Below, piece by piece: positions 18,825 to 64,000 of a stretch of DNA of 64,000 nt. How positions within the stretch are numbered: position 1 is the stretch's first letter; each line of letters begins with the position of its first letter. Location: NCBI GenBank assembly GCA_036172245.1, contig JAYWIR010000053.1, positions 1 to 64,000 of the forward strand, given 5' to 3'. This DNA is from Raillietiella orientalis (Eukaryota). A program made the translations under genes and the position numbers. The notes under the pieces were generated by a model. That model was not told the origin of the DNA and made no database searches. It was given only the letters and a program-made list of their open reading frames with translations.

Positions 18825-18831
18825 TTCGACG
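18825..18831 (+). repeat. TSD of left D, TTCGACG (second copy TTCGGCG at 30558-30564)
   Basis: 6 of 7 bases match, and the site is the same as for the right-hand D insertions. Confidence 0.75.
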
Positions 18832-25500: not shown

Positions 25501-26112
25501 ATTTTCATCGAGGAAAATGTGATCGAGCGATCTTTTCATTCCAGGTTCGCTGACCATCAAGTTGGCGGCGTGCACGGACGCGCACTTCTCGATGGAGAGC
25601 GCGCGCTCACTCGGCCGGCTCCAATCGTCGGAGAGCAGGCGGACGTTGAAGTCCCCAGCAACGAGGTGCGCCACTTGGAAACCGGAGTTGTTGAGCCAGT
25701 GGCTCTGCACCTCACCAATGAAAGCTACTCTTTCTTCGAGGTAGCGATAGCCACTCGGCGCGTAGACGTTCGTAACGACGAGATCGATGGACTCGGAACT
25801 CTTCATGACAAGCTGGCCTATCCGTCCGTCGTCATCGAAACGAACACTACGCACCGCTTCCGCCATTTTTCCTCTTACGAGGAACGCGACGCCGCACGTG
25901 TGTGCGCCGCCGCACCGCCAATGTAGCGTTCCGCCTGCGCGCTCCTCGATTTCGGCTGCCTGCTCGTCGGAGATTACGTGAATCTCCTGCAGGAGCGCGA
26001 GGTCGACGGGGCGCAGGGCGTTGGCTACTAATCGCCTCTTCTCGTCGTTCTGTAGTCCGTTCACGTTCCAACACGTTACGGACAGACGACGAGAAGACGC
26101 GATTCCCCGCAT
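22519..26112 (-). pseudogene. Left C ORF2 (endonuclease, RT, zinc finger), one frame with premature stops at 25372 and 23608
   Basis: CWNVNG, LQEIH, NVYAP, AGDFN, LDH, SDH, DLHKAFD, YADD and CVRC...PHLLLDC. Confidence 0.94.
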
Positions 26113-28034: not shown

Positions 28035-28112
28035 CGTCGTCAAAATGTACGACGCCAAGATGAAGCGGATGAAAGCACGGAGACGAGAGCGAAGAAAAAC
28101 ACGTCCGCACTC

Positions 28113-28581
28113 GATTGAAATCTCCCGCTTTCAGGTGAGGCTTCCGCCCGTTCCTGTCCGCCAGCCAGTCGCGCTTCAGGGTTTCCAGCAGCCTGGTGCG
28201 GTCGCGGTAACCCTGTTTGCCGCTGGGTCCATACACGTTTGTGACGATTAGGTCGATCGAGTCGGACCAGCAGAGAATCAGCTGATCGATCCGACCGTCG
28301 TCATCAAACCGCACGATCTTTACGGCAGCGTCGATGGCCGGCTTCACGAAGAACGCGACCCCGCAGGTGTTGCGGAGGCCGCATCGCCAATACAGCCGAC
28401 CCCCCGCGATCGTCTCGATTTCCTGGGCGTCTGCCGCGGTGATCACGTGGATCTACTGCAGCAGCGCCAGGTCGAGCTCACGCAGAGTGTCGGCTGTATC
28501 TCGCCTGTTGCCGTCGTCGCGCAGCCCGTTGACGTTCCAACAGGCCGCGCGAATCCGACGGCGACTGGCGAGCCCAGGTGT
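28113..28581 (-). pseudogene. Left D ORF2 endonuclease N-terminal half
   Basis: CWNVNG, LQ*IH, NVYGP and AGDFN. Confidence 0.9.
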
Positions 28582-43362: not shown

Positions 43363-43467
43363 TCCCCGCTGTGTAGAGCGGACGTGCTTTTCCTGCGCTC
43401 CGCCTGCGTGGCAAAGCGAGTGTTTTTTCTTATTAAGTGATTTGTGCGTGAACATCGTCGGTGTCCG

Positions 43468-45338
43468 ATGGCAGCGTTGCCAGAGGACACCGCGATGGAA
43501 GTAGTCGTGATGGAGGCTTGTTCGTCCCCACAGCCTACTGGATCAGGGGCTTCCGCCCCGGAATCGTCCCCGGCGACGCCGAGGTCATGGAGCGCCATGG
43601 TGGCCGCGCCTAGCGTGGAAGCCATGGCCGAGATGAAAGCCTACAAGAAAGCGGGGTATAAACCCTCGCTAGTCTACAAGGTAGGCAACCTTTTCGATGG
43701 GCGAACTGCACGCGCCTTTACGAAGGCGCTGCAGGACGCCAATATTTTTGAAAAAGATCTCGACGGCCTCTGCGTCCTCAGCGGCGGGCAGCGGGTCGAG
43801 GTGGTATGCAAGGATATCACCTTGGCCCGACACCTGATCACCGACCCGCTGATCGTTGATGGTCGGAAGATCTTACCGATAACGATGGACCGCTCGGTGG
43901 TGGTCCATCTCACTGGGATCTCAAGTCGCATGACGAGGTCAGCGGTTCGAGAACAGCTACAAGAGCACGGAGAAGTGCACGCGTTTTGGCCGAAGTCCAC
44001 GATTTTCAGAGGCTACAATAGCCTTTTCGGAGGTCAAGCTGCGGCGCGTATCACGGTAAAAAAGGGTGGTGCGCTTCCCCATAAGCTGGAGGTCTGCCAA
44101 GAAGCGGTGGACCTCTGGTACGTGGGGAAACGCCAATTTTGTGGCTACTGCAATGCAGTAGGCATCTCCGAAAAAGGTGCCCGAACATTGTGTGCCACCT
44201 ATGCGGCGAAAAGGGTCACGATCGGCGCGTGTGCCCCAAGCCCCCCACCCCGGTGCCCCCTGCCGCCAAAAAGGCGCAGGGAAAACGTGGAAAGCTGGTG
44301 GAAAGACCAGCTCGCGAAAATGGCCGTTCCCAACTGCCAGCCTCCCTTCCTCCCGTACAGACGTCGGAGCAAATAGCTCCCGTGGACGCGGGAATGGAGG
44401 AGGCTTGGCAGCTGGTTCAGGCCAGAAAAGAGAAAAAAAAGATAGTGATGATAGAAGAAAATTCGGAGAAGAAAACTGCCGGCAACAAGAAAAAAGCCGC
44501 GCCGCTTTCAAAAAAAAAACTCAACGAACGCTCGGTGGCACTGGAACGCTTAGCCGTTCCTGCCGAGTCCGCCCGCGGCAATGTTCGCGGAACAGCTGAT
44601 GCGGACGCGATGAATACTCGCGTGGACGAGCCCAATCTACGTTTAGAGGGTGAGACGCGAGACTCGCGCGCCGACGGCCAGGACGCCGCGCTCGATAAAG
44701 TCGCGGAGGAGCCCGCGGCAACGTTCTCGGTCAACGATGACGCCGCGCTCGATAAGGTCGAGGAGCATCCTGGGGAAACGGTCGCCGCTGGCGAAGACGC
44801 GGCCTTCGAGAAAGCGGCGGAGGAGCTCGCAGCAACGCTCGCCGAGCGCGAAACCCCGTCGTGCAAGGGCGTACGCAGGTCGGCCCGACGAAGAAGGCCC
44901 CGCAGGTGAGTGCGACCTGTAAGCCGGAAGCGGATCCTCCTCCTCGGAGGCACCCATAGGAAGTCGGGACGCAAGTCCCAGAAACCAAGGAGGCTCCTCC
45001 CCTCCACCAGCGAGGAGTAGAAGCAGGAAGCCAGCGGTAGCGTGGGAATGCCGGAGGTTGAACTCCCACGCTCGGAAGCCGTCGAGCCGGCAACCCCCAT
45101 ATAGAAGGGTGAGCAAGAAGGCGAAGTCCTCCCTGCAGTCGCCGAGCCTGAACAGCCCGCCCCCATGGAGGAGGGCCAACAGGTAGGCGCGACCCCACCT
45201 GAGGGTGACCCGCTCGACGCGCCGGCACCGATGGAGGAGGAGGAAAAGGTGCCTTCAGTACCTGTCCCCCCTCCCCCTCTACCTAGCGTCCCGCCCCAGC
45301 AGGTGGCGGACGCCGCATCGCCGTTTTCCCTGGACTAA
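43468..45338 (+). pseudogene. D1 ORF1
   Basis: CGYCNAVG (frameshift) and CHLCGEKGHDRRVC; ends at TAACA. Confidence 0.9.
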
Positions 45339-45806
45339 CACCTGGGCTCGCCAGTCGCCGTCGGATTCGCGCGGCCTGTTGGAACGTCAACGGGCTGCGC
45401 GACGACGGCAACAGGCGAGATACAGCCGACACTCTGCGTGAGCTCGACCTGGCGCTGCTGCAGTAGATCCACGTGATCACCGCGGCAGACGCCCAGGAAA
45501 TCGAGACGATCGCGGGGGGTCGGCTGTATTGGCGATGCGGCCTCCGCAACACCTGCGGGGTCGCGTTCTTCGTGAAGCCGGCCATCGACGCTGCCGTAAA
45601 GGGCGTGCGGTTTGATGACGACGGTCGGATCGATCAGCTGATTCTCTGCTGGTCCGACTCGATCGACCTAATCGTCACAAACGTGTATGGCCCTAGCGGC
45701 AAACAGGGTTACCGCGACCGCACCAGGCTGCTGGAAACCCTGAAGCGCGACTGGCTGGCGGACAGGAACGGGCGGAAGGCTCACCTGATAGCGGGAGATT
45801 TCAATC
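45338..45806 (+). pseudogene. D1 ORF2 endonuclease N-terminal half
   Basis: CWNVNG, LQ*IH, NVYGP and AGDFN. Confidence 0.9.
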
Positions 45807-45884
45807 GAGTGCGGACGTGTTTTTCTTCGCTCTCGTCTCCGTGCTTTCATCCGCTTCATCTTTGCGTCGTACATTTTGACGACG

Positions 45885-47780
45885 ATGTCGACCCAACTTG
45901 AAGCTACTGAAGTTGGAGGAACAGCATCCGGATCTGCAATCGCGGAAGCGACGGCCGCCTCCACTTCGTCTTTCTCGCCAATGGAGAGGAGTTTTGCTGA
46001 CGTTGCTGCCACAGCAGCCGTCAAAGGGAAACCTCTCGACGAGTCGGAGTTGCGGGCATACGTAGCCCAAGGCTATAGACCTGCTCTCCGATATAAGGTG
46101 AGTGGCTTTCTTTCTGCGCGCGACGGGAATCAGTTCAACGATGAACTGACCCGTGTTGGCGTGCGGGAGGAGGACCTTCTCGCCATTATGCCCGTAAAAG
46201 ACATGGGCTATTTCAAGGTGCGTTGCAAAGACGCTGCACTTGTGCAGCGCTTGCTGCGCACCCCGCTTTCGATCCGTGCCCAGAACGTCTTCCCGGCCGC
46301 CATGGACGACTCATTTGTGGTTGAGATTTCCGACATCGAGTCGGAAATCTCCGATACTGATATTCGGAACGCGTTGGCGAAATTCGCCACGGTCCATGCG
46401 CTGTGGAGGGTGCGTAGCAACCTCAAGGACTTCCCGTCCATACACAGCGGAGTCGCTGGAGTCCGGCTTACAATGCCGGACCGCCGTCTGCTGCCCACCA
46501 AACTACAGTTGAAAGACACGGTCGTTCACCACGTTCAATGCGGGAAGGAGGGGCATTGTTTGGATAAATGCCCCTCTGGAAAATGCCGTTATTGCAAACT
46601 ATCCGGGCACCAATTGAAAAATTGCCCGGATCTTTTGCGAAAAAAGGCAGCCGCGGAGCTCCATTTTAAAAAACAAAGCGCGGATAAGAAGAAAAAATCT
46701 GCGAAAAACCTGGAGACCCCACGGCAGAAATTCGGTAAAAACGCGAGGCGGAATGTCGCCCCAAAGCAGCAGGAAACCTCGCACGCGAAGCCCTGCGCAC
46801 CCCCTCTCGCGGCAGGGGAGCCGCAAAAGAAAGAGTGCAGGGAATCCGGGGCAATGGTAAGTCCCCCTAGGCGCAATAGCTGTCCTTCCCAAGCACGCCC
46901 GGCTCTCTCGGAGTTCGAGCAACCGGCGGGGACGCCAATGGACAACGGCGGTAAGGACACTTCCAGTACCGTCAGATCCATTCCTTCACCTCCTGCAGTG
47001 GCTGAGAAACCCAAATCGGGTAAGAAGGGTTGTGCCCTGTCGACTTCGAAAGTCGGCAAAAAAAAATCCGCGTCGCGATCCAACACCGCGAAAGCGGAGA
47101 AAAATCTTACGCGGTCGCAGTCGGAGAGCAAGCTCTCGACTGGCGCGAATGCGATGCCAACGAAGGGATTAAACGCCCTTCCGAAAGCAGCGTCCATGAG
47201 GAGCGTGTCGGAGCCATCGAAATTGCTCCAGTCCAAAGACGCGGATGGCTTAAAAGATGGCCATGGAGCGCAATCTCCATTTACGGCGCCACGCGGAGTG
47301 AGGAACCGTAATAAAATAAAGAAGACTTCAGCAAAGGTCCCTCGTGCAACTGCGCGTGAGCACGCTGAAAACGCGCGCGCCGGGAAAGCAGCCGTCACCA
47401 AAAGCGATGCTCTGGTGACGGAAAACGAAAACAGGACCGCTGTCAATCCAGCAGAACCTGTCACTGCTTCGCGGAAGGCCGAAATCCGATCGAACATGCG
47501 CCGGTCGGACTCCGAAATGGATGCCGTTCCGATCACCGAGACGAGGACAACTCGTTCGAAAGCGTGTGCGCGCCTATCAAAAGTAGGCAGCGAGGCAACG
47601 CTCGCCGCGAAGCAGCGCGAAGTCTCCACGAAACCCGACGGGGTTAAGCCTGGCGTGGAGGAATTGCATGCATGCAGCACGACGGAGGACGGTGGCAACC
47701 GTCATCTCCAGCCAATCGTGCTGCTCGCCGTCTGCTCGCCGGATAAAGCGAGCAAAAAGCCGCCACCTTCCCAGCAGTAA
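45885..47780 (+). CDS. Right C ORF1, open but with an in-frame deletion at the first zinc knuckle
   Basis: VVHHVQCGKEGHC here versus VVHQWFVGKVETCEQCGKEEHC in left C. Confidence 0.8.
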   Translation: MSTQLEATEVGGTASGSAIAEATAASTSSFSPMERSFADVAATAAVKGKPLDESELRAYVAQGYRPALRYKVSGFLSARDGNQFNDELTRVGVREEDLLAIMPVKDMGYFKVRCKDAALVQRLLRTPLSIRAQNVFPAAMDDSFVVEISDIESEISDTDIRNALAKFATVHALWRVRSNLKDFPSIHSGVAGVRLTMPDRRLLPTKLQLKDTVVHHVQCGKEGHCLDKCPSGKCRYCKLSGHQLKNCPDLLRKKAAAELHFKKQSADKKKKSAKNLETPRQKFGKNARRNVAPKQQETSHAKPCAPPLAAGEPQKKECRESGAMVSPPRRNSCPSQARPALSEFEQPAGTPMDNGGKDTSSTVRSIPSPPAVAEKPKSGKKGCALSTSKVGKKKSASRSNTAKAEKNLTRSQSESKLSTGANAMPTKGLNALPKAASMRSVSEPSKLLQSKDADGLKDGHGAQSPFTAPRGVRNRNKIKKTSAKVPRATAREHAENARAGKAAVTKSDALVTENENRTAVNPAEPVTASRKAEIRSNMRRSDSEMDAVPITETRTTRSKACARLSKVGSEATLAAKQREVSTKPDGVKPGVEELHACSTTEDGGNRHLQPIVLLAVCSPDKASKKPPPSQQ

Positions 47781-50700
47781 TGCGGGGAATCGCGTCTTCT
47801 CGTCGTCTGTCCGTAACGTGTTGGAACGTGAACGGACTACAGAACGACGAGAAGGGGCGATTAGTAGCCAACGCCCTGCGCCCCTTCGACCTCGCGCTCC
47901 TGCAGGAGATTCACGTAATCTCCGACGTGAAGGCAGCCGAAATCGAGGAGCGCGCAGGGGAAACGCTACATTGGCGGTGCGGCGGCGCACACACGTGCGG
48001 CGTCGCGTTCATCGTAAGATGAAAAATGGCGGAAGCGGTGCGTAGTGTTCGTTTCGATGACGACGAACGGATAGGCCAGCATGTCATCAAGTGGTCCGAG
48101 TCTATCGATCTCATCGTTACGAACGTCTACGCGCCGTGTGGCTCTCGCTACCTCGAAGAAAGAGTAGCTTTCTTTGGTGAGGTGCAGAGCCACTGGCTCA
48201 ACAACTCCGGCTTCCAAGTGGCGCACCTCGTCGCTGGGGACTTCAACGTCCGCCTGCTCTCCGACGATTGGAGCCGCCCGAGGGCGCGCGCGCTGCCCAT
48301 CGAGATGTGCGCGTCCGTGCACGCCGCCAACTTGATGGTCAGCGAACCTGGAATGGAAAGATCGCTCGATCACGTTTTCCTCGATGAAAACCTGCATTCG
48401 CGTGTGGGTAGGAGAGGAAGATTGTTGACTGAGCTTTCTGACCACCACAGGTTGGAGTTTGAGATCCTTCCGCCAGGCAGGTGGCCTCCGTTGCAAAGCT
48501 GGAGGATGCAGGCGGATTGGCTTAGCCAACCGGAGGCTGCGGAGCATCTACGTGGATACCTCCGGGGCTTTGCCATTCAAGAACTTGCGGACTGGGACGA
48601 TCTCAAAAGATCTGTCCGCGAGTTCTGTTGCCAATTCCCCTTGCACCGGCTTCCACGCGGTTTCGGAGAGGGCGTGGCCAACAGTAGAGACTTTCTGCAG
48701 GCTCGCACGTTTTCGAGACGCGCGGATGTCCGGTGTCTCGCAGAGTACAAGGCGAGGGCCGAGCGCCAGGTCTGGCAGTCCGGAGCATCATGCCTGTTGG
48801 ACGACAAGGGCCAGGAATGTTCGGCCCCAGCCGAAGTACGCCGCATTTGAGACGCTACTACTCCTCGCTCTACGCGGAATCCCCGACGGAGGATATTCTT
48901 TCTGAGATACTCCTGTCTCAGGATGCTCGTGTTGTCGGCGAGGAGGAACGCGAACGTCTCGACGAGCCCTTCGGGGCGCATGAATTTTCGTCCGCCATCG
49001 CTGGGCTGAAGAGACGCAAGGCGCCAGGCGAGGATGGGCTCCCTGCAGAGTTTTATCAGTGCTTTGCAGTGGAGCTCATTCCCTTGATGCTGAAACTCGC
49101 GACGCTGATGAGTGAATCCGGGAATGTCCCTGATTCCTTCCGCTCAGCGAAGGTGCGTCTCCTGCCGAAAGGCGGAGACTTGCGACAACTTAACAACTGG
49201 CGTCCGATCACCTTGGTGAACTCGGACGTCAAGTTGTTTTTTAAGCTGTGGGTCGCGCGGTTAGGAAGTATCACGGAATCTGTGGTGAGCCCGGAACAAA
49301 CCTACGCGGATCCGGGACGATCCATGGAGGCGAACATCCTTTTCGCGCGTACATGGATGCAGCCGCAGGAAGTTGTGGCGCAGCAAAGCCAGGCTGCTGC
49401 GAAAGTCACTGCCGCAGGCAAAAAGAACAGGCGCCGACGGCAGGAGGGAACGACAGGTGCCTTGGCGGTCGCGGTCGATCTCCACAAGGCGTTCGACTGC
49501 GTAAACCAGAAGCTGCTTTTGGAGCTTATGGAACGCCTTGGGTTCCCGGCGCAACTCCTGCTGTATTTGCGCGCGTGCTGGCGCCACGCGCTAACCAGCA
49601 TCACTTTTAGCGGCTGCCGCGTGTATGGTATTCCCGTTCGTAGGGGCATCCGACAGGGCGACAGCTTAAGCCCGTTGCTCTTCAGCATCTTCTTTGAGTT
49701 GGTGCTAAGAGCATACAGGCTGACGCTGTCTCACTTGCCAAGCTCCTGCCCGGGAACGCCTGCCGTGGCCGCCTACGCTGATGACCTGCTTCTTCTGCTC
49801 CCCATGTCCATCCCGGCGTCCAGTGTCGAGGATTTCTTCGACCTGATTCGTCGGGGAGCGGGCGTGAGCGTGAACAGAGAGAAGAGCGTGGTCGTTCCTG
49901 TGAGTACGTCGTGGGAGGGGCAGTCCCACTGGATCCGCCTGGGGATCCCCACGGGCGGGTACTTTAAGTACCTTGGCGTTCCGTTGGGCGATTTCGGCGC
50001 AGCCGAAGCGTGGGCGGACTGTCTTCAGAAAGCAGAGTTGGCCATCAGCCCGTTCTTTAACGGCAAGTTCACCTTGCAGGAACGGGCGACTATTTGGAAC
50101 ACCTTTGTGGCCCCCCTCCTCCGTCCCCTGTTTTTTGTTTTGGACCCCCCCTATGCGGCAAAACAGCGGGCTAAGCGCCTGCTCAGAAGAGCTCTCTGGG
50201 GTCCGGCGAGATCCAGGATCCGCCTTAAAGATTTGTCAGCTCGGCGTCGGGATGCTGGTTTGGGTATCCTGATAATGGAGCGAACCGGACTGCAGGTGCA
50301 GTTCCGACTGCTGGCACTGTGTGCCCAGCTATGGAGATCCCCCCTGTGTGTGCCAGCTCGCATTCTCCTGCGGAGATGCGCCGGCAGCGGAGGATTTCTC
50401 TCTCTTTTGCCGGGCACTCAATACAGGAAGCGGGGTTTCGGGTTTCCATTGCGGCAGTTGACCGCACTTCTGGAAGCACACTCTTGGATCTCCTGCCGCC
50501 CAATGAACTTTGAAGCTTGGCGGCAGGAGTCTGTTGAATCCTGGGCGGCGTTCCAAGGAATACGCCCTGAAGATCTTCGCCCCCTGCGCCAATTTTTTCC
50601 ACTATCCTTGGAAGAAGTACTGCAGGAAGAGGTGAAGTTTTCTACCCTGACTGCCCCGCCTCTTGCCGCAGCGCTGTCTGCCCTCAGGGCAAGAAACCAC

Positions 50701-51372
50701 AGTTACCAACCGGCGAGGTGGGAGGTTTCCTGCACGATAGCGGGAAGAACCAAACTTCTTGGCACCTGGAAGACAAGTGAGTTGGCGGACGCCGCCACTC
50801 CTCGTATTACTGCAAAGGGACTCCTCCGGTGGGCAGAAGAACTTGCTGTCACCCCCGAAGAACTTGTAGTCCCTCCACAGTGTATGGACAGTTCGCTGCT
50901 CCCCCTTGCTTGGAAACAAGCCGTGCTGCTTTCCGTTCACTGGGGTTTTCAGTGCAACGAGCGTTGGCATCGTGACTCCGGGGGACTTGCGTCTGCGAAC
51001 TGCGTTCGGTGCGGATCGACGGAGTCGATTCCGCACCTACTTCTGGACTGCGGTGTCCTACAAGGACTGTGACGTAGGCTGGCAACAGCACTATTGCATC
51101 CCGTGGACACCGCAAGAGACTTGCTGCGACGATTCTTCAGGCCGAGCGGGCTTTCACTAAGCGCAAGGATTCCAACCATCGGTTGCATACGCGCGATAGT
51201 CTCCGTCCGCCAGGCGTTGGTAATCAACGGACAGCACCAAGAGGTAATCAGCAAAGCATCCTTCTACATGGGAGCATCCGCTAGATGGCCTCATTTGACA
51301 GAGGAGACAAAGAGGAATCTCGCCGCAATACACCGCCGGTTTACACACCCTCATCAGCGGCCAACCCCGTGA
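47780..51372 (+). pseudogene. Right C ORF2
   Basis: All endonuclease, RT and finger motifs; stops at 48020 and 51070, frameshift near 48848. Confidence 0.94.
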
Positions 51373-51685
51373 TCATTGACCTACCCTCCATAAACTAAAT
51401 TTGTATTTTCTTTTTACACCCGCGTCCCCATAGGCTCCGGAACATTTTAGGTGCTCATTGTATAAATCCCCGTGAGTACGGAGCCTAACCAAACACCCGT
51501 TACCCTTCCCTACAGTTTTTGATTTTTGTTTGGTTCCATTCATTCCCCCCACGCTGCGAGCGGTTTGTTTTCCAAGCCTGCGTGCCGGTAATTTTTCTAT
51601 GTTCTCGGTCGTTCTCTTGGTTGGGGACATTGTCCCTGACCAGTTTATTATTATTAATAAACGCCCCGGCGTGACCGGGTGATAA

Positions 51686-54600
51686 ATTGCAATCTCCGCC
51701 TGCTAACAGGTGAGCCAGAAACACAAGTGAAAGCGATGAACGAGTTGTGCGCCGCCATGCGTGCGCGCAACTTCTTCGCTGGTGAGAGGGAAATGGTCCG
51801 CAGCATCGACAACGTCTTCCTCGACGCTGACCTGTGTTCACGGGTCGACAAACGGGGGAGGGTTGCGTCAACGTTGTCGGACCATTCCCGGTTAATTTGC
51901 GAGCTGCGGCCTCGCGACAAAGGACCGCCATCCAGGAATTGGCGTCTGCCGGGGGACTGGACGCGACTCTCAGGTGCGAAGGAACACCTTCGCGAATACC
52001 TTAGAGGCGTCACGATCCGGAATCTCCAGCACTGGGACCTTTTTAAGGAATCGGTCCGCGAGTTCTGTGAGCAGTTCCCCCTGGATCGCCTGCCCCCCGG
52101 ATTCGGCGAGGGTGCTCGAACCATCGGGCCTATTTACATGCTCGTAGGTACGAGAGAACCCCTAATTTCCGTCGCCTGGCCGAGTACCGCGCCGGGGCCG
52201 AACGCCAAGCCTCGCAATCCGGGTCGGCCAGCTTGCTGGACGACCAAGGCAGGGAATGTTCGTCCCCGCCGTCGGTATGGCAACTCGTGCGGAGTTCTTA
52301 TTCCTCCCTTTACGCCAGGGAGTCCCCGGATCGAAACGCCTCTCGACGCTTGCTTCCGGATGGCACCCCGGCAATAGGGGAGGAGGAGTTGAAAAGCCTC
52401 GACGAGCCTTTTACCACCGGCGAAATTCTCAACGGTATCAAAAGGCTCAAGAGGCGTAAAGCTCCAGGGGAAGACGGCTTGCCCGCGGAGTTCTTTCAGA
52501 GCTTCGCGGAAGAGCTGGCACCCCTGCTGCTTAAGCTGACAAGGCTGATCCGAGACGAAGGCGATGTTCACGCCTTGTTTCGGTCAGCCAGAGTGAGGCT
52601 CTTTCCGAAAGGGGGAGACCTTAGGAATTTGAACAACTGGCGTCCGATCACGATCTTGAATACGGTCGCTAAGTTGATAGCAGGGCTATAAGCTTCGCGT
52701 CTGGGGCAGGTGGCAGAATCCGTAATTAGCCCGGAGCAGACTTATGGTGTTCCCGGGCGAAGTATGGATGCCAACCTCTTCTTCGCAAGCACATGGGTGC
52801 ACCTGCAGAGAAGAGAAAAGAAAGGGATAGGGAAAGTCGGCAAGCCCACATTGGGGCCACCAGCCGGGCTGGGAAGGGACCCCCGAGCAGGGAAGGGGGC
52901 CCTAGCGCTCGCAGTCGATCTCCTCAAGGCGTTCGACTGTGTAGACCAGGAACTCCTCTTGGAGCTCGTGGGTCGCATGGGCTTTCCACCCTCCCTGATT
53001 TCCTACCTGCGCTCTTGCTGGCGGAATGCGATGATTACCGTCTGTTTCAGTGGACAGAAGGTGTATGGCGTGCCGGTGCGGCGGGGCATAAGGCAGGGCG
53101 AAAGCCTCAGCCCCCTGCTCTTTAGCACCTACTTTGAGTTGGTGCTGAGAGCGTACAGGGTGACTTTGGCCCCCTTGCCGAGCTCGTGCCCCCCACGCCC
53201 GCCGTAGCAGCGTACGCCGACGATCTTCTGCTCTTGTTGCCAATGTCCACCCCGGCGAAGGCGGTCGGAGACTCCTTCGATCTGCTAATCCGCGGGACCG
53301 GACTGCAGGTTAACAGGGCGAAGTCGTCGGTTGTGCCAATAGGTGCGGCGTGGGCAGGGCAGCAGGACTGGGTCCGTGTGGGGATATCCTCGGCGAGGTG
53401 CTTCAAGTACCTTGGTGTGCCGTTCAGAAACTACTGCCCCGCGGAAGCGTGGTCCAGCTGCCTCCAAAAAGTCCAGACGGCTCTGGGCCCGTTCCTGGAA
53501 GGCAAGTTTCACTTGCCGGAACGGGCCGCGGTTTGGAACGCCTTCGCGGCCCCCATCCTCCGCCCTTTGCTTTTTGTTTGCCCTCCCACCGTGGAATCCA
53601 AGAATAGGACGAAGGACCTCCTCCGTATCGCCCTTTGGGGCAAGGGGAGGCCCCGAGTCCCACTGAAGAACTTGTGCGCTCCGCGTCGGCACGGCGGTCT
53701 CTGCCTCCTGACGCTGGAGCGCGTGGAGAAGCAGCTGCGGTGGCGAACCCTCGCCATCGCAGCGAAGATGTGGTGCACCCCTTGGTGCACTCCAGCCCGC
53801 CTCCTGGCCAGCCGTGTGTCCCGGTGCGATGGACTCGCGTCTTTTCTTCTCAGCCGTGGCCGGAAGATGCGAAGATGCGGCCTACTGCTCGAGCTCATGG
53901 CAACATTAGCCAAGGAGAACAGCTGGATGGTTTGCTGCCCCGCCAACTCCCCCGCCTGGCTGGAGGAAAATATTGGAACGCGGGCAGTGGTTAACCAGAC
54001 AATCCACAAGACGTGGAATCGTCTCCGTTGCAGCCCCTACGCCCGCTGCACGCTGCGGAATCTCCTGGAGAGTCCAGCAAGATGCACTTGGGCAGTGACG
54101 ACCTGTCTAGCTACGGCGCTGCCCTTCCTGGAGAGGGCACTTCACAGCAGCCGGACGCCAAGGTGGCAAGTCTCCTGCTGCATCGAGGGACGCGAAAAGT
54201 TGATCAGCGGCTGGACAACAGAAGAACTGGCAGACGCCACGACCCCGAGCGTCCAGCCGCGAGGACTAAGAAGATGGGGCGAGCTGCTGGCCATCCCTAT
54301 AGATGTGCTGAAGTGGCCCCCGCTTCTTCAGGAATCCAGGATCCTGCCCCTCAAGTGGAAAGAGTCGGCGTTGCTGTTGTTGCATTGGGGTTTACCCTGC
54401 AACGCACGCCGCTCTCACTGGACAAGAGGAGTTGTGGATCCTGCGTTTGTCAGGTGCGGAGAGCGGGAATCGCTCTCCCACCTTATTGTGGACTGTGCTG
54501 CCCTTCGTCCCCTTTGGGAACGGTTTGGGATGATCCTCGGTCTCCCAACGAGCAGTTCCCCTAGAGACGTTCTTCGGCTCCTCTTCGTGAAGGACGCCCT

Positions 54601-54820
54601 GCAGCCAGCCGCAGTTCTTGCAGCCTTGTGCTGCGTCCGAGGCATCGTGGCGGCATGGAGCGACACCAACAAGGAAGGAGTTGGTCAACACGCGAGGGAT
54701 GTCATCCCATATGCCCAACGCTTCTTGCGAAGAGCTGCCGGATGGCCCCAACTGGGGAATATGCAGACTGACCTCGAGGTCTTCGTTCGACGGATGGGCC
54801 CTCTCGACAGCGACCAGTGA
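51686..54820 (+). pseudogene. D1 ORF2 remainder
   Basis: SDH, WRPITILN, DLLKAFD, YADD and KYLG, with stops and frameshifts. Confidence 0.93.
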
Positions 54821-55045
54821 TCCCTTCCCTGCCCTCCAACTTCTTTTTGTCTGTTTCTTTTTATTTTACTTTTTGTCTTATGCCCATCCCCCTTCGCTGT
54901 CGGGGAGTGCCACGCCGGGCTGCGTCCCGGTGTCCCGACAGGTCCTGTGTTTAGGGCCGTGGTGGGGCCTTGTACCACGCATGTAAAGTTTAATAATAAA
55001 CGCCCCGGGCGTACCCGGGTGATAACGCCGAATCCCTTGGTGAGT

Positions 55046-55052
55046 GGACGTG
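55046..55052 (+). promoter_or_regulatory. DPE-like 5' motif GGACGTG (representative copy)
   Basis: Recurs close to the 5' end at 3156, 16335, 28100, 30534, 32740, 37899, 43380 and 45813 (single-base variants at 3156 and 32740). Function is inferred. Confidence 0.6.
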
Positions 55053-55131
55053 TGTTTCCTTCGCTCCCGAGTGAGTCGACAGGAAGCGGTTTTTTCTATT
55101 GTTGTTTGGTGTGGAACATCGTTGGTGTCCG

Positions 55132-56889
55132 ATGCCAGCGATGCCTGAGGACACCACGATGGAGGTAGGTGTGGGGGAGGCTTGCCCACCCCCACAGCCT
55201 ACCGAATCAGGGGCGTCCGCCCCGGAATCGCCCTCGCCGCTTAAGGCGAGGAGCTGGAGCGCCATGGTGGCCGCGCCGAGCGCGGAAACCATGGCCGAGA
55301 TGGCGTCCTACCTGGCAGCTGGGTACAAGCCCAGCTTGGTTTACCAGGTAGGCAATCTCTTTGACGGGCGAACTGCACGCGCTTTTTCGAAAGCGCTGCA
55401 GAACGCCAACGTGTTGGAAAAGGACCTTGACGGTCTATCCGTGCTCAGCGGGGGTGAGCGCGTCGAGGTTGTCTGCAAGGACATCACCTTGGCGCAAAGC
55501 TTGATAACCACCCCGCTGAACGTGGACGGACGCAAGATCCTACCAGTCACGATGGACCGCTCCGTAGTGGTCCATCTGACAGGGATCACCAGCCGCAAGA
55601 CGCGGTCTACGGTTGGTGATCAGTTAATAAAGTACGGGGATGTTCACGCGCTTTGGCCAAAGGCCACAATCTTCGATGGCTACGATAGCCTTTTCGGAGG
55701 GCAGGCCGCCGCGCGCGTGACGGTGAAGGAGAGTGGGCTTCCCCACAAACTAGAGGTCAATGGCGAAGTCGTAGACCTCTGGTACGTGGGGAAACCCCGC
55801 ATTTGAGGCTACTGCAATGCAGTAGGACACTTGCGCAAGCGGTGCCCGAACGTTGTGTGCCACTTATGCGGGGAGAAGGGCCACGTACGCCGCGTATGCC
55901 CTAAACGCCCCACTCCGGTGCCGTCTGCTGCAAAGAAAGCACAGGCAAAATGCGGTAAACTGGTCGAAAGACCAAAAAGAGATACTGGCCGGCAGCAGCC
56001 GCTGGCCCCTGTTCCTCCCACACAGGCGTCGGAAGAACAACCCTCCGAAGACGCGGGAGTCCAAGACGACTGGCAGTTGGTCAACGCCAGGAAGGAGAGA
56101 AAGGTGCACTTCGCGGAACCCGCGAAAGCGGTAAAAAAGACAGCCGGCAAGGCGAACAAACCTGGACCGCCCTCTAAGACCATGCAGGAGTGTACGGTAG
56201 CACTGGAGCGCATAGCCGTTCCCTAGATTGCCACCCGGGGCGACGAGCCTTCCCTCGCCGTTTCCGCCGCGCCCGCGGTTCGCGACGGCGAACAATCTGT
56301 TTACACAGAGGGTGAGCCGCGCGAAATAGCGACGGTCGAAGCCGAGGACGCCGCGTTCGCTCAGGCGGCGGAGGAGCTCGCGGCCACGCTGGCGGAGCGT
56401 GAGAACCCCTCGCGCAAGGCCGTGCGAAGGCCGGCTCCCGCGAAAAAGGCCCCCACAGGTCAGTCGGACCTGGCGGCCGGAAGTGCATCCTCCTCCTCGG
56501 AGGTACCCCCCAGGAAGTCGGGACGCAAGTCCCAGAAACCCAGGAGGCGCCTCCCCTCCACCAGCGAGGAGGAGAAGTAGGAAGCTAGCGGTAGCGTGGG
56601 AATCCCGGAGGGGGAACTCCCATTCTCGGAAGTCGTCGAGCCGGCCACCCCCATGGAGGAGGGTGAGCAGGGGGGCGAAGTCCTCCCTGCAGTCGCCGAG
56701 CCTGAACAGCCCGCCCCCATGGAGGAGGGCCAACAGGTAGGCGCGACCCCACCTAAGGGTGACCCGCTCGACGCGCCGTTACCCATGGAGGAGGGGGACC
56801 AGGTGCACGCAGCGCCTGACCCTCCTCCTCCACCTAGCGTCCCACCCCAACATGTGGCGGACGCCGCATCGCCATCTTCCCAGGAATAA
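55132..56889 (+). pseudogene. D2 ORF1
   Basis: Stop at 55804 in the first knuckle; CHLCGEKGHVRRVC; frameshifted tail with three PMEEG repeats. Confidence 0.9.
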
Positions 56890-59800
56890 CACCTGGGCTC
56901 GCCAGTCGCAGTCGGATTCGCGCCGCCTGTTGGAACGTCAACGGGCTGCGCGACGACGGTAACAGGCGAGATACGGCCGATAACCTGCGTGAGCTCGACC
57001 TGGCCCTGCTGCAGGAGATCCACGTGGTCACCGCGGCAGACGCCCAGAAAATCGAGGCGATCGCGGGGGGTCGGCTGTATTGGCGGTGCGGCCTCCGCAA
57101 CACCTGCGGGGTCGCGTTCTTAGTGAAGCCGGCCATCGACGCGGCCGTGAAGGGCGTGCGCTTCGATGACGACGGTCGGGACGGTCAGCTGATTCTCAGC
57201 TGGTCCGACTCGATCGAATTTATCGTCACGAATGTGTACGCCCCCAGCGGTAAACAGGGATACAGCGACCGTACCAGGCTGCTGGATTCCCTGAAGCGCG
57301 ACTGGCTGGCGGACACGAACGAGCGGAAGGCTCACCTGATAGCGGGAGATTTCAATCTCCGTCTGCTAACAGGTGAGCCAGAAACACAAGAGAACGCGAT
57401 GAACAAGTTGTGCGCCGCCATGCGTGCGCGCAACTTGTTCGCGGGAGAGAGGGGAATGGTCCGCAGCATCGACCACGTCTTCCTCGACGCTGACCTGTGT
57501 TCACGGGTCGGCAAACGGGGGAGGGTTGCGTCGACGTTGTCGGACCATTCCCGGTTAATTTTCGAGATGCGGTCTCGTGACAAGGGACCTCCATCCAGGG
57601 ATTGGCGTCTGCCGGGGGACTGGACGCGACTCTCAGGTGCGAAGGAATACCTTCGCGAATACCCGAGAGGTGTCACGCTCCGGAATCTCCAGGACTGGGA
57701 CCTTTTTAAAAAATCGGTCCGCGAGTTCTGTGAGCAGTTCCCCCTGGATCCCCTGCCCCTTGGATTCGGCGAGGGTGCTCGCAACCATCGGGCCTATTTA
57801 CAGGCTCGCAGGTACGACAGAACCCCTAATGTCCGTCGCCAGGCCGAGTACCGCCCCGGGGCCGAAAGCCAAGCCTGGCAATCCGGGTCGGCCAGCTTGC
57901 TGGACGACCAGAGCCGGGAATGTTCGTCTTTGGCGTCGGTACGGCATCTCTTGCGGAGTTTTTATTCCTCCCTTTACGCCCAGGAGCCCCCGGATCGAAA
58001 CGCCTCTCGACGCTTGCTTCCGGATGGCACCCCGGCAATAGGGGAGGAGGAGATGGAAAGCCTCGACGAGCCTTTTACCACCGGCGAAATTCTCGCCGGT
58101 ATCAAAAGGCTCAAGAGGCGTAAAGCTCCAGGGGAAGACGGCTTGCCCGCGGAGTTCTTTCAGAGCTTCGCGGAAGAGCTGGCACCCCTGCTGCTTAAGT
58201 TGATCAGGCTGATCCGAGAGGAAGGCGATGTTCCCGCCTCGTTTCGGTCAGCCAGAGTGAGGCTCCTTCCGAAAGGGGGAGACCTCAGGGATTTAAAGCA
58301 CTGGCGTCCGATCACAATCGTGAATACGGACGCCAAGTTGATCGCAGGGCTATGGGCTTCGCGTCTGGGGCAGGTGGCAGAATCCGTAATTAGCCCGGAG
58401 CAGACTTATGCTGTTTCCGGGCGAAGTATGGATGCCAACCTCTTCTTCGCAAGCACATGGGTGCACCTGCAGAGAAGAGAGAAGAAAGGGATAGGGAAAG
58501 TCGGCAACCCCACATTGGGGCCGCCAGCCGGGCTGGGAAGGGACTACCGGGCGGGGAAGGGGGCCCTAGCGCTCGCAGTCGATCTCCACAAGGCTTTCGA
58601 CTGTGTAGACCAGGAACTTCTCTTGGAGCTCCTGGGTCGCATGGGCTATCCCCCCTCCCTGATTTCCTACCTGCGCTCTTGCAGGCGGAATGCGATAATT
58701 ACCGTCTCTTTCAGCGGTCAAAAGGTGTATGGCGTGCCGGTGCGGCGGGGCTTAAGGCAGGGAGATAGCCTCAGCCCCCTGCTCTTCAGCACCTACTTTG
58801 AGTTGGTGCTAAGAGCGTACAGGGTGACTTTGGCCCCATTGCCGAGCTCGTGCCCCGGCACGCCCGCCGTAGCACCGTACGCCGACGATCTTCTGCTTTT
58901 GTTGCCAATGTCCACCCCGGCAAAGGCGGTCGGAGACTTCTTCGATCTGCTAAGCCGCGGGACCGGACTGCAGGTTAACAGGGCGAAGTTCTCGGTTGTG
59001 CCAATAGGTGCGGCGTGGGCAGGGCAGCAGGACTGGGTCCGTCTGGGGATCCCCACGGCGAGGTGCTTCAAGTACCTTGGTGTGCCGTTGGGGCACTACT
59101 CCCCTGCGGAAGCGTGGTCCAGCTGCCTCCAAAAAGTCGAGACGGCGATCGGCCCGTTCCTGGAAGGCAAGTTTCACTTGCCGGTACGGGCCGCGGTTTG
59201 GAACGCCTTCGCGGCCCCCATCCTCCGCCCCTTGCTTTTTGTTTGCCCCTAAACCGTGGAATCCAAGAAGAGGACGAAGGACCTCCTCCGTATCGCCCTT
59301 TGGGGCAAGGGGAGGCCCCGAGTCCCACTGAAGGACTTGTGCGCTCCGCGTCGGGACGGCGGTCTTGGCCTCCTGACGCTGGAGCGCGTTAAGAAGCAGC
59401 TGCGGAGCCGAACCCTCGCCATCGTAGCGAAGATGTGGAGCACCCCTTGGTGCACTCCAGCCCGCCTCCTGGCCAGCCGTGTGTCCCGGTGCGATGGACT
59501 CGCGTGTTTTCTTCTCAGCCGTGGCCGGAAGATGCGAAGATGCGGCCTACTGCTCGGGCGCATGGCAACATTGGCCAAGGAGAACAGCTGGGTGGTTTGC
59601 TGACCCGCCAACTCCCTCGCCTGGCTGGAGGAAAATATTGGAACGTGGGCAGTGGTTAACCAGACAAGCCACGAGACGTGGAATCGTCTTCGTTGCAGCC
59701 CCTACGCCCGCTGCACGCTGCGGAATATCCTGGAGAGTCCAGCAAGATGCATGTGGGCAGAGACGACCTGCCTAGCTACGGCCCTGCCCTCCCTGAAGAG

Positions 59801-60485
59801 GGCACTTCACAGCAGCCGGACGCCAAGGTGGCAAGTCTCCTGCTGCATCGAGGGACGCGAGAAGTTGATCAGCGGCTGGACAACAGGAGAACTGTCCGAC
59901 GCCACGACCCCGAGAGTCCAGCCGCGAGGATTAGTAAGATGGGGCGAGCTGCTCGCCATCCCCAGGGATGAGCTGAAGTGGCGCCCGGTGATGAAGGAAT
60001 CCAGGATCCTGTCCCTCAAGTGGCAAGAGTCGGCGTTGCTTTTGTTGCACTGGGGTCTACTCTGCAACGCGCGCCGCTTCCACTGGACGAGGGGAGCTGT
60101 GGATCCAGCGTGTGCCAGGTGAGGTGAGCGGGAGTCGCTTCCCCACCTTATTGTTGATTGTGCTGCCCTCCGACCCCTTTGGGAACGGTTCCGGACGACC
60201 CTCGGGCTCCCTACGGGCAGGACCCCCAGAGACGTTCTTCGGCCTTTCTTCGTGAAGGACGCACTGCAGCCAGCCGCAGCCATCGCAGCCTTGTGCTGCG
60301 TCCGTGGCATCGTGGGGGCATGGAGCGACGCCAACAACGAAGGAGTGGGTCCACAGGCGAGGGATATCATCCCGTATGCCAAACGCTTCTTGCGAAGATC
60401 TGTCGGATGGCCCCAACTGGGGAATATGCAGACTGACCTCGAGGGCTTCGTTCGAGGAATGAGCCCTCCCTACAGCGACCAGTGA
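56889..60485 (+). pseudogene. D2 ORF2, open from ACA at 56889 to 59252 (complete endonuclease and RT), then in-frame stops
   Basis: TPGLASRSRIRAACWNVNG, LQEIH, AGDFN, SIDH, SDH, DLHKAFD, YADD and KYLG. Confidence 0.94.
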
Positions 60486-60659
60486 TCCCTTCCCTGCCCT
60501 CCAACTTCTTTTTGTTTGTTTCTTTTTATTTTCCTTTTTGACTTATCCATATCTTCCTTCGCTGTCGGGGAGTGCCACGCCGGGCTGCGTCCCGGTGTCC
60601 CGACAGGTCCTGTGTTTACGGCCGTGGTGGGGCCTTGTACCACGCATGTAAAGTTTATT

Positions 60660-60690
60660 AATAAACGCCCCGGGCGTACCCGGGTGATAA
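60660..60690 (+). terminator. 3' end signal: AATAAA + CCCGGG-CGTA-CCCGGG hairpin + TGATAA (representative copy)
   Basis: Equivalent signals at 764-793, 18399, 18832-18862, 22206-22235, 37002, 38996-39025, 51656, 54995 and 61114. Confidence 0.7.
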
Positions 60691-61113
60691 CGCCGAAGCT
60701 CGGCGGAAGACGTTCCATGGGAAACTAGTCGCAAAACTCGCTGACTGAGCACTTCATTTCGTCCCAGTCCGCGAACGTATGAAGCTGGAATCCTCGCAGG
60801 AAGGAGCGTAGATGTTCCGCCGCTGCTGCGAGGCGCAACCAATCCCCTGGCAGGCGCCATGTTTTCAGGGGAGGGCCCTTATTGCACCGATGTAACTCGA
60901 GCACGAGCCGTGGATGGTCGGACAGTTCTGCCGGGAGCGTTCCTCGAGTTTCCACCCGCGTGGACAGGTGGTTGTCGAGGAACATGTGGTCGATGTTCCG
61001 ATCTCTCCCGGCATCACCGGCCAACAAGTTGCGCGCATTCATTGCTCCGCACAACTGGTTGACCAGCTGTGCTCGTCGGTTGGGCGCACCTGCCAGCAGG
61101 CGGAGATTGAAAT
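60691..61113 (-). pseudogene. E2 endonuclease C-terminal half (FN to RLPPSFG)
   Basis: FNLRLL, NIDH, SDH and DWDEMK; joins 43362 across the D array. Confidence 0.9.
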
Positions 61114-64000
61114 TTATCACCAGGACACGCCGAGGGGTTCATTAATAATAATAAACTGGTCAGGGACAATGCCCCCAGCCAATAAAACGACAGAGAACAT
61201 AGAAAAATTACCGGCACGCAGGCCTGGTAAACAAACCGCTCGCAGCGTGGGGGGAATGAGGGGAACCAAACAAATCAAAAACTGGAGGGAAGGGAAAAGG
61301 GTTTTTGGTTAGGCTCCGTACTCACGGGGATTTAAACGATGAGCACCTCAAATGTTCCGGAGCCCATGGGGACGCGGGTGTAAAAAGTAAATACAAAATT
61401 AGTTTATGGAGGGTAGGGCAATGATCACCGGGTTGGCCGCTGCTGAGGGTGTGTAAACCGGCGGTGTATTGCGGCGAGATTCCTTTTTGTCTCCTCTGTC
61501 AAATGAGGCCATCTAGCGCATGCTCCCATGTAGAAGGATGCTTTGCTGATTACCTCTTGGTGCTGTCCGCTGATTACCAACGCCAGGCGGACGGAAACTA
61601 TCGCGCGTATGCAACCGATGGTTGCAATCCTTGCGCTTAGTGACAGCCCGCTCGGGGTGAAGAATCGTCGCAGCAAGTCTCTTGCGGTGTCCACGGGATG
61701 CATTAGTGCTGTTGCCAGCCTACGCCACAGTCCTTGTAGGACACCGCAGTCCAGAAGTAGGTGCGGAATCGACTCCGTCGATCCGCACCGAACGCAGTTC
61801 GCAGACGCAAGTCCCCCGGAGTCACGATGCCAACGCTCGTTGCACTGAAAACCCCAGTGAACGAAAAGCAGCACGGCTTGTTTCCAAGCAAGGGGGAGCA
61901 GCGAACTGTCAATACACTGTGGAGGGACTACAAGTTCTTCGGAGGTGACAGCAAGTTCTTCTGCCCACCGGAGGAGTCCCTTTGCAGTAACACGAGGAGT
62001 GGCGGCGTCCGCCAACTCACTGGTCTTCCAGGCGCCAAGGATTTTGGTTTTTCCCGCTATCGTGCAGAAAACCTCCCACCTCGTCGGCTGGTAACTGTCG
62101 TTTCTTGCCCTGAGGGCAGACAGCGCTGCGGCAAGAGGCGTGGCAGCCAGGGTAGAAAACTTCACCTCGTCCTGCAGTACTTCTTCCAAGGATCGTGGAA
62201 AAAATTGACGCAGGGGGCGAAGATCTCCAGGGCGTATTCCTTGGAAAGCCGCCCAGGATTCAACAGACTCCTGCGCCGAGCTTCAAAGTTCATTGGGCGG
62301 CAGGAGTTCCACGAGTAAGCTTCCAGAAGTGCGGTCAACTGCCGCAATGGAAACCCGAAACCCCGCTTCCTGTATTGAGTGCCCGGCAAAAGCGAGAGAA
62401 ATCCTCCGCTGCCGGCGCATCTCCGCAGGAGAATGCGAGCTGGCACACACAGGGGGGATCTCCATAGCTGGGCACACAGTGCCAGCAGTCGGAACTGCAC
62501 CTGCAGTCCGGTTCGCTCCATTATCAGGATACCCAAACCAGCATCCCGACGCCGAGCTGACAAATCTTTAAGGCGGATCCTCGATCTCGCCGGACCCCAG
62601 ACAGGGTTCCTGAGCAGGCGTTTAGCCCGCTGTTTTGCCGCATAGGGGGGGTCCAAAACAAAAAACAGGAGACGGAGGAGAGGGGCCACAAATGTGTTCC
62701 AAATAGTCGCCCGTTCCTGCAAGGTAAACTTGCCATTAAAGAACGGGCTGATGGCCAACTCTGCTTTCTGAAGACAGTCCGCCCACGCTTTGGCTGCGCC
62801 GAAAGCGCCCAACGGAACGCCAAGGTACTTAAAGTACCCGCCCTTGGGGATCCCCAGGCGGATCCAGTCGGACTGCCCCTTTAACGACGTACCCACAGGA
62901 ACGACCACGCTCTTCTCTCTGTTCACGCTCATGCCCGCTCCCCGACTAATCAGGTCGAAGAAATCCTCGACACTAGACGCCGGGGTGGACATGGGGAGCA
63001 GAAGAAGCAGGTCATCAGCGTAGGCGGCCACGGCAGGCGTTCCCGGGCAGGAGCTTGGCAAGTAAGACAGCGTCAGCCTGTATGCTCTTAGCACCAACTC
63101 AAAGAAGATGCTGAAGAGCAACGGGCTTAAGCTGTCGCCTTGTCGGATGCCCCTACGAACGGGAATACCATACACGCGGCAGCCGCTGAAAGTATTGCAG
63201 GTTAGCGCGTGCCGCCAGCACGCGCGCAAATACAGCAGGAGTTGCGCCGGGAACCCAAGGCGTTCCATAAACTTTAAAACGAGCTTCTGGTTTACGCAGT
63301 CGAACGCCTTGTGGAGATCGAACGCGACCGCCAAGGCACCTGGCGTTCCCTCCTGCCGTAGGCGCCTGTTCTTCTTGCCTGCGGCAGTGACTTTCGCAGC
63401 AGCCTGGCCTTGTTGCGCCACAACTTCCTGCAGCTGCAACCATGTGCGCGCGAAAAGGATGTTCGCTTCCATGGATCGTCCCGGAACGGCGTAGGTTTGT
63501 TCCGGGCTCACCGCAGATTCCGCGATACTTCCTAACCGCGCGACTCACAGCTTGGAAAACAACTTGACGTCCGAGTTCACCAAGGTGATCGGACGCCAGT
63601 TGTCAAGTTGACGCAAGTCTCCGCCTTACGGCAGGAGACGCACCTTCGCTTAGCTGAAGGAATCCGTGACATTCCCGGATTCACTCATCAGCGTCGCGAG
63701 TTTCAGCATCAATGGAATGAGCTTCACTGCAATGCACTGATAAAACTCTGCAGGGAGCCCATCCTCGCCCGGCGCCTTTCGTCCCTTCAGCCCAGCGATT
63801 GCGGACGAAAATTCATCCGCAGTGAAAGGCTCGTTGAGACGTTCGCGTTCCTCCTCGCCGACAACACGAGCATTCTGAGACAGGAGTATCTCAGAAAGAA
63901 TATCCTCCGTCGGGGATTCCGCGTACAGAGAGGAGTAGTAGCGTCTGACAATGCGGCGTACTTCGGCTGGGGCCGAACATTCCTGGCCCTTGTCGTCCAA
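61114..64000 (-). mobile_element. Element C (third copy), 3' 2.9 kb (ORF2 from 61425 upward), in sense at GDFN of E2; continues beyond the window
   Basis: Highly similar to the other C copies; its 3' end GTGATAA abuts ATTTCAATC at 61105-61113. Confidence 0.93.

Follow-up and report, generated by a model that had tools for sequence, protein, structure and literature searches.

A 64-kb stretch of contig JAYWIR010000053.1 of Raillietiella orientalis (the window; GC content ~58%) contains three copies of a long interspersed nuclear element (LINE), here called family C, and all three lie at the same short target within the endonuclease codons of other LINEs. We consider it probable, at roughly two chances in three, that C is a sequence-specific LINE inserting into the codons of the GDFN motif of other LINEs. 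The best reading of the window as a whole is that it may hold a group of L1/Tx1-like LINEs whose insertions would be directed to specific sites within conserved coding motifs of related elements. The copies of C, delimited by BLASTN of C against the window, and the sites relevant to its target are:

22206-28112, minus strand: C1, a complete element of family C measuring 5907 bp, nested in D1, a copy of family D; 95.9% identical to C2 over its whole length (BLASTN)
45807-51685, plus strand: C2, likewise complete at 5879 bp, nested in D1', a second copy of family D
61114-64000, minus strand: C3, a third copy cut by the window end, with C positions 2991-5879 inside and the 5' part outside; 95.0% identical to C2 (BLASTN)
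28113-28121, minus strand: 5' target-site duplication of C1, ATTTCAATC, in the GDFN codons of D1
22197-22205, minus strand: 3' target-site duplication of C1, ATTTCAATC
45798-45806, plus strand: 5' target-site duplication of C2, ATTTCAATC, in the GDFN codons of D1'
51686-51694, plus strand: 3' target-site duplication of C2, ATTGCAATC, with one mismatch
61105-61113, minus strand: ATTTCAATC abutting the 3' end of C3, in a host called E2
57345-57360, plus strand: empty exact 16-bp target GGAGATTTCAATCTCC in D2, a third copy of family D; quasi-palindrome GGAGATT-TC-AATCTCC
48236-48251, plus strand: the GDFN site of C itself, GGGGACTTCAACGTCC, unoccupied, with 4 mismatches to the 16-mer, 3 of them in the 9-mer

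The 9-mer ATTTCAATC occurs five times in the window against 0.36 expected, and none of 100 shuffles reached five. Four of these exact occurrences touch an end of C and the remaining one (57349-57357, plus strand) is the empty site in D2 that the original prediction, made from the sequence alone, had pointed out. That prediction also held that the C copies abut this 9-mer. This is true of all five C junctions within the window (three copies), with the reservation that the 3' flank of C2 at 51686, ATTGCAATC, carries one mismatch and was for that reason missed by an exact search. In its other factual statements the prediction holds. The duplication is 9 bp long in both complete copies, perfect for C1 and with this one mismatch for C2. 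The 5' junctions of C1 and C2 read GGGAGATTTCAATC followed directly by GAGTGCGGACG, and at the 3' junctions of C1 and C3 the terminal GATAA is followed directly by ATTTCAATCTCCGCCTGCT (for C3, from 61113 downward). The 9-mer sits in GGA GAT TTC AAT CTC, which encodes G-D-F-N-L in the frame of the host. LIAGDFN of D2 aligns with LIMGDFN of the human L1 endonuclease (G144-D145-F146-N147), so that the aspartate, by count from the printed alignment, corresponds to D145, as had been predicted; the available part of one source describes Asp145 of the L1 endonuclease as essential for catalysis (PMC8565326). Every C insertion is in sense with its host and splits the endonuclease domain of the host copy; the predicted inactivation of hosts thus holds for the copy that is hit and not beyond it.

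Both ends of C are constant. The head reads GAGTGCGGACGTG, the tail ends in ...TTATTAATAAACGCCCCGG..CCGGGTGATAA (...GGGGGATAA in C1) without poly(A), and C has defined ends without long terminal repeats (LTRs) or terminal inverted repeats, flanked in C1 and C2 by the 9-bp target-site duplication. The end of the tail consists of a short GC hairpin plus GATAA, and the last ~28 bases, including this small hairpin, are common to C and D. Every C and D copy ends in ...CCGGGTGATAA directly against its target, rather than in a poly(A) or simple-repeat 3' end; such an end varies among LINE clades and is no strict requirement. We rejected the tail hairpin as a proven structure, as none of its seven predicted pairs shows a compensatory change, and retain it solely as one that can form. 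C2 has an open reading frame 1 (ORF1) starting with Met at 45885 and containing a CCHC knuckle, and an ORF2 comprising an endonuclease, a reverse transcriptase (RT) and a C-terminal C-x2-C-x7-H-x4-C motif, disrupted by a 1-nt deletion near 48847. In a public run (X1), which contains 27% of the sampled window words and was examined as contigs, a contig carries an extra G after 48847 that joins the endonuclease and RT frames of C into one ORF2, so this frameshift is private to C2; the frame of C1 is also continuous at this position. In both C1 and D2 Pfam finds RVT_1 preceded by Exo_endo_phos, the latter with E 2.9e-13 and 8e-14, respectively. The RT of C matches human L1 ORF2p with E 4.8e-36, against 5.9e-16 for the best R2 chain. 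The C-terminal Cys/His motif, CVRCGSTESIPHLLLDC, is visible in the sequence, and Pfam zf-RVT was not reported at E <= 0.001. By its domains, with ORF1, ORF2 and an L1-like RT, C is predicted to be an autonomous LINE of the apurinic/apyrimidinic endonuclease (APE) type.

The best solved relatives of C are the human L1 endonuclease and ORF2p. Its sole close relative is an unnamed metagenome protein (56%), and the closest named one is the zebrafish (Danio) 'pol-like protein' BAC82609.1 (29% identity), the sole pointer to the Tx1 clade. The Protein Atlas yielded generic endonuclease/RT clusters with no useful taxonomy, and a second homologue search ('longer' lengths) gave five weak matches, none of them informative. 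A metagenome scan for the shared 3' tail returned four loci, all unrelated chance matches (GC 41-52%) without LINE context. Two X1 contigs match from 51656, the last 30 bases of the C tail, with unrelated AT-rich sequence before; they may represent another family with the same terminal hairpin-GATAA tail.

The exact 9-mer is present at four host sites (D1, D1', D2 and E2), three of which are filled. The original prediction further proposed that the motif of C and the other GDFN-type sites differ from the target and are unoccupied, and we could confirm this for both: the site of C is GGGGACTTCAACGTCC at 48236 and at 25656 (in C1, minus strand), and none of the six GDFN-type sites lacking the 9-mer (7844, 14125, 25656, 48236, 33674 and 37383) is occupied, each differing at two or three positions of the 9-mer. 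The changes at these six sites are mostly at third codon positions and all six retain DFN or DLN (four GDFN/GDLN, one VDFN, and one in which a stop replaces the Gly). Synonymous escape from C is therefore easy, since the amino acids are constrained and the nucleotides are not. The idea that C targets a motif its hosts cannot easily lose is thus overstated. That C would avoid itself through different codons fits the three of nine positions that differ at its own site, in three C copies; for family D the own site likewise differs, by one base after the cut, which would fit the same explanation in a handful of copies. The evolutionary interpretation given with the prediction is, therefore, partly supported.

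How much weight these junctions carry depends on the hosts in which they lie:

18832-30546, minus strand: D1 with C1 inside, antisense in a host called H1; 3' flank CGTCGAA (18825-18831), and CGCCGAA on the 5' side (30558-30564)
43374-55025, plus strand: D1' with C2 inside, antisense in E2; preceded by CGCCGAA (43356-43362) and TCCCCGCTGTG, followed by CGCCGAA (55026-55032)
55040-60690, plus strand: D2, full-length, its endonuclease-RT frame open over 804 codons; it stands in tandem with D1', and CGCCGAA (60691-60697) comes directly after it
60692-61113, minus strand: E2 host fragment, endonuclease residues ~171-311 (D2 numbering), of a family distinct from D (tblastn and nucleotide identity)
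41674-43373, minus strand: continuation of E2, residues ~309 to 555, beyond the tandem D insertions (tblastn)
18666-18831, plus strand: H1 host fragment ending at the GFGEG-equivalent site (tblastn); H1 continues at 30547-32689, plus strand

E2 is one minus-strand element with C3 in sense at its GDFN codons and two tandem antisense D copies ~420 bp downstream. The CGCCGAA at 60691-60697 is the antisense of the end of the E2 fragment, ...AGCTTCGGCG, where E2 stops against the tail of D2, and E2 restarts beyond D1', at 43368 downward, at the same residue and GFGEG site at which the 60692 fragment stops; tblastn recovers this continuation as a match of D2 residues 309-803, from 43365 down to 41884. 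E2 and D (either copy) are 63% identical in nucleotides over ~403 bases past the 19 bases that their flanks share after the 3' junction (18 of 19 for C2), and over residues 171-311 E2 and D2 share 52% protein identity (tblastn). The proposition that the third C lies in a distinct host, so that there were at least two independent insertions in sense, is thus upheld, as is the sharing of sequence by D and E2 at the junction. Independent insertions into the same sequence in the same orientation, by which target-specific LINEs are recognised, are found here in sense in a D-family and an E2-family host.

C1 and C2 are more difficult to separate. BLAST chains 18822-32229 to 55035-41705 at 93% over 13.4 kb, but we reject, in its simple form, an inverted block duplication of two D copies with C inside: the outer flanks are 73-76% identical and the divergence is stepped. 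On the 5' side 30547-32229 and 41705-43373 are 76% identical, and on the 3' side 18666-18831 is 73% identical to its E2 counterpart, so the two composites lie in different hosts, H1 and E2. Between them (18832-30546 versus 43374-55025) the mismatch is 1.7% in the 5' part of D, 3.6% in C and 5.6% in the 3' part of D. Maximum-likelihood change points fall at 45894 (support 45514-45984) and 51424 (51064-52264), intervals that contain the C junctions at 45807 and 51685, and the three-rate model with two change points beats a single rate by 33.7 log-likelihood units. Judged from these sequences, the stepped mosaic would fit separate nested insertions, D and then C, better than one copied block. Transitions and transversions are about equally frequent among the copies (105:112 for C1-C2), which is unusual for simple neutral decay; this may reflect different master copies, gene conversion or consensus errors in repetitive sequence. 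The suggestion that the two C copies in D may be one event is, therefore, possible, although it is neither the sole nor perhaps the best reading. We regard two independent C insertions as certain on the sequence at hand and a third as probable.

A stricter version of this objection is that none of the junctions is independent: C would have entered D once, the composite would then have multiplied, either by retrotransposing as a unit or through DNA duplication, and ectopic recombination or gene conversion with such a composite as donor would have carried C into E2, with one end of the tract in the 19-bp identity. Over the 3' half, C1 and C2 share 96.9% identity and C3 matches them at 94.6% and 95.1%, which can be read in this way. 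The window is also rich in inverted and tandem relatives able to recombine, and near 41674-41705 host identity changes in register, a hint of recombination in another part of the nest. However, E2 diverges from D straight after the 19 bp, and the next ~400 bp, at 63% identity, are ill suited to homologous exchange; of the C copies, C3 has diverged most, the outer flanks of the two composites differ on both sides (73-76%) with divergence stepping at the C junctions, and family D is independently position-specific in two hosts. We consider this scenario quite improbable. Even less credible is a mere regional preference, in which C would favour LINE-rich heterochromatin and the positional coincidence would be luck. 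The whole window is LINE, so any insertion here hits a LINE; yet the chance of a second independent hit at the same nucleotide and on the same strand, in a host that is 63% identical, is of the order of 1 in 10^5 (64 kb, two strands), and the exact 9-mer is confined to C junctions and one empty D2 site.

A different doubt concerns what does the choosing. C transcripts might read through into the host flank (ATTTCAATCTCCGCCTGCT...) and anneal to the homologous stretch of any nicked related LINE, so that RNA-DNA pairing would fix the position and C would partly have brought the 19 bases that E2 shares. The three 3' flanks do share these 19 bases (18/19 for C2) against 63% identity of E2 and D beyond, and a 1040-nt X1 contig over the C tail (word depth 19), which aligns end to end, stops at 51704, exactly 19 nt past the end of C, where D-type and E2-type flanks diverge. 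R1-type site-specific LINEs position reverse transcription by read-through target sequence. The native site of E2 may have differed from that of D, since the shared bases are partly importable with C as a read-through 3' end. However, C itself also preserves TCCGCCTGCT, the final 10 of these 19 bases, and a further family, I, has the final 8 (CGCCTGCT), so much of this identity is ordinary coding conservation. Moreover, the junctions of D have just 7 bases in common, differ right after these and vary even inside them (CGCCGAA/CGTCGAA), and are no less position-specific; this speaks for the endonuclease as the part that selects the site in this group. Guidance by homology would in any case still need a nick at the correct position, and we regard it as unlikely.

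Several observations weigh against a sequence-specific C. Three C copies in all were seen, within the window only, and the 5' junction of C3 lies beyond its end. The 19 shared bases do stand out against 63% identity, and homology, rather than the endonuclease, might direct the insertions. C1 and C2 could be one event, via a D copy with C inside that was retrotransposed as a composite and later patched by gene conversion. A depth-2 X1 contig runs from the D tail plus CGCCGAATCCC, via CTTT, into sequence aligning from 45805 (55037 joined to 45805), i.e., the C head; it may come from a D-type target that received a C-like head, or from a subfamily of D whose head resembles that of C. The null covariation of the tail hairpin (0/7 pairs) also belongs here. 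The other X1 contigs over the junctions are consistent with a shared target: besides the one that ends at 51704, a contig of 3755 nt covers the C head and begins at 45777, which is exactly k-1 (30 nt) upstream of the 5' end of C, as expected where filled and empty versions of one flank coexist. X1 may be the source sample of the window itself and thus perhaps not independent, so that it mainly confirms the assembly. Two other runs (X2 and X3) were of no help, as they matched only in low-complexity 31-mers around 60505-60540 and in some short fragments.

If C does select its target by its endonuclease, it would integrate by target-primed reverse transcription at GGAG^ATTTCAATC^TCC, the G-D-F-N-L codon block in the endonuclease domain of D and E2, in sense orientation and with a 9-bp duplication. 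The C endonuclease would recognise the 16-bp quasi-palindrome GGAGATT-TC-AATCTCC, which has two mismatches to its own reverse complement. The bottom strand would be nicked after ...GAAAT, and its exposed 3' OH would serve as primer for cDNA copied from the hairpin-GATAA tail; the top strand would then be nicked at a distance of 8-9 bp, after TCAATC (or TCAAT, if the head-adjacent C belongs to the element). One specificity could serve both nicks, since AAT^CTCC is present on both strands. For C such a target would be a safe, multicopy and sequence-conserved site, each hit killing just that one host copy. C would then be one of at least two, and probably three, sibling lineages with a fixed site in the ORF2 of relatives, and this habit would account for the LINE-only nest of the window.

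Family D provides the second case. The three D tails read GGGTGATAA directly followed by CG(C/T)CGAA (18825-18836 on the minus strand, 55021-55032 and 60686-60697 on the plus strand), and the 12-mer GATAACGYCGAA, GATAACG(C/T)CGAA, occurs three times in the window against 0.02 expected. This flank is the antisense of TTCG(G/A)CG in the (G/S)FGEG codons of H1 and E2, with AAGG next in both. The occupied D sites thus read TTCG(G/A)CG^AAGG, and the three sites of D itself read TTCGGCGAGGG and are all empty. Within E2 the order is ...CTT, CGCCGAA, D1', CGCCGAA, TCCCTTG, D2, CGCCGAA, GCTCGG.... D1 and D1' have an identical 18 bases, CGCCGAATCCCCGCTGTG, before their heads (30547-30564 and 43356-43373), beyond which the hosts differ, and D2 has CGCCGAATCCCTTG before its head (55026-55039). 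Either a 7-bp duplication precedes a D element whose 5' end begins at TCCC, or transcription of D starts in an upstream target copy, which is then carried along. Judged from these junctions, family D appears position-specific for the GFGEG codons of two hosts, in antisense.

A third fixed target, CGCATCA, may exist. Within 18400-18436 (plus strand) the tail of a third type of LINE ends at 18429 against CGCATCA, where an antisense host fragment ends in ...CTGATGCG, and within 3134-3165 (plus strand) a LINE head starts at 3141, just past CGCATCA at 3134-3140, where an antisense C-like host begins with TGATGCG.... Both junctions fall at homologous 'LMR/LMS' codons near the start of the RT in two different hosts (tblastn); they are one junction from each of two insertions, possibly of different families. 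We rejected family F (16347 down to ~11000, minus strand) as a fourth GFGEG insertion: its 3' flank starts with CGACGAA, and this flank is without significant similarity to any ORF2 region.

These observations tentatively point to a guild of at least three sibling LINE lineages, each with an endonuclease tuned to a different short sequence in a conserved ORF2 motif of the others, an idea to which we give somewhat less than even odds. In such a guild C would use ATTTCAATC in GDFN in sense, D TTCG(G/A)CG^AAGG in GFGEG in antisense and the third type TGATGCG in 'LMR' in antisense. If the guild is real, the families would parasitise one another and escape by mostly synonymous codon changes at the target, and in doing so would build and confine chromosome islands made of LINEs alone, such as those that have been suggested to be centromeres in some algae. 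That D and a third type may do as C does is a more interesting lead than C alone.

The window as a whole agrees with growth by insertion into resident copies. LINE coding sequence spans the full 64 kb, with RVT_1 and Exo_endo_phos domains (Pfam) throughout. A tblastn map with the C and D2 proteins reveals fragments and full copies of related families, mutually nested on both strands, with C1, C2, D1, D1' and D2 of full length. Nested endonuclease and RT fragments recur across the whole 64 kb, as in a LINE-only cluster made by insertion into resident copies, and protein identity between most LINE families in the window is 50-65% (tblastn). A more distant family occupies 4770-9800 on the minus strand, ~25% identical to C and D in ORF2, its endonuclease-RT frame open over 1088 codons and its ORF1 bearing a zf-CCHC knuckle; at 7844 it has a GDLN site that differs from the C target. 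At 41674-41705 the RT frame of E2 runs in register into a far more divergent element, with identity to C falling from 59% to 36% at residues 555/557 of the C RT; this joint looks like recombination or a template switch.

Site-specific LINEs are of interest as natural, programmable safe-harbour integration and as models for the way in which an APE-type endonuclease gains long specificity, and here the harbour is the catalytic-motif codon block of rival LINEs. The window also represents a natural experiment in parasite-on-parasite conflict, with occupied, empty and escaped sites side by side, as the target of C is held by protein constraint and can be escaped at third codon positions. If reciprocal among lineages, this would provide a simple sequence-level mechanism by which LINE-only, Zepp-like islands grow by nesting without spreading into genes. 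In the literature searched, which left out most subscription journals and Repbase Reports, no LINE with a fixed target in the catalytic-motif codons of sibling LINEs and no sibling LINE lineages targeting one another were found described, and BAC82609 is named in none of the papers; this is weak evidence that the idea is absent from print.

That LINEs may target other transposons is established for the Tx1 group. The accessible portions of Kojima (2015; PMC4494074) list Tx1L in the piggyBac-type Tx1D, Tx1-Mar in Mariner-N4_AMi, Tx1-9_AMi in Harbinger, and Tx1-8_Crp and Tx1-4_AMi in LTR retrotransposons, and describe tandem insertions with repeated target for Tx1-mobilised elements. As far as these portions go, the elements studied here are like the Tx1 group in being APE-type LINEs that occupy transposable elements of another family, always at one position and in one orientation, and in the tandem insertions, here of family D, that sandwich a target-site duplication. 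They are unlike it in that the target is the catalytic-motif coding sequence of sibling LINEs of the same superfamily (50-65% protein identity) rather than a DNA transposon, an LTR element, an RNA gene or a microsatellite. Also in contrast to what is described there, several sibling lineages would target each other, and the tail is a hairpin plus GATAA without an A-rich or simple-repeat end.

In green algae, the L1 elements Zepp and ZeppL insert into copies already present and form LINE-only clusters (Craig et al. 2021, PMC8226300, citing Higashiyama 1997), and according to the available text of that paper the likeness lies in L1-type LINEs nesting in resident copies until such clusters result. 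The Zepp arrays are described there (PMC8226300) as mostly 3' ends of 5'-truncated copies, whereas here C and D are of full length; no defined motif is named for Zepp in the same text, whereas we find exact 7-9-mers in coding motifs of hosts that belong to other families. No Zepp or algal name was present among the matches of the two homologue searches, which were not aimed at Zepp homology. With R1/R2 and other LINEs specific for rDNA or repeats, as outlined in the accessible parts of two sources (PMC1919474, PMC5035012), C would share a sequence-specific endonuclease, action on both strands and a conserved multicopy safe haven. Their targets, in so far as these sources describe them, are host genes or repeats under host selection, whereas the target of C would be kept only by selection on the enzyme of another parasite and can be dropped through codon changes, mostly at third positions, of the kind seen within the window.

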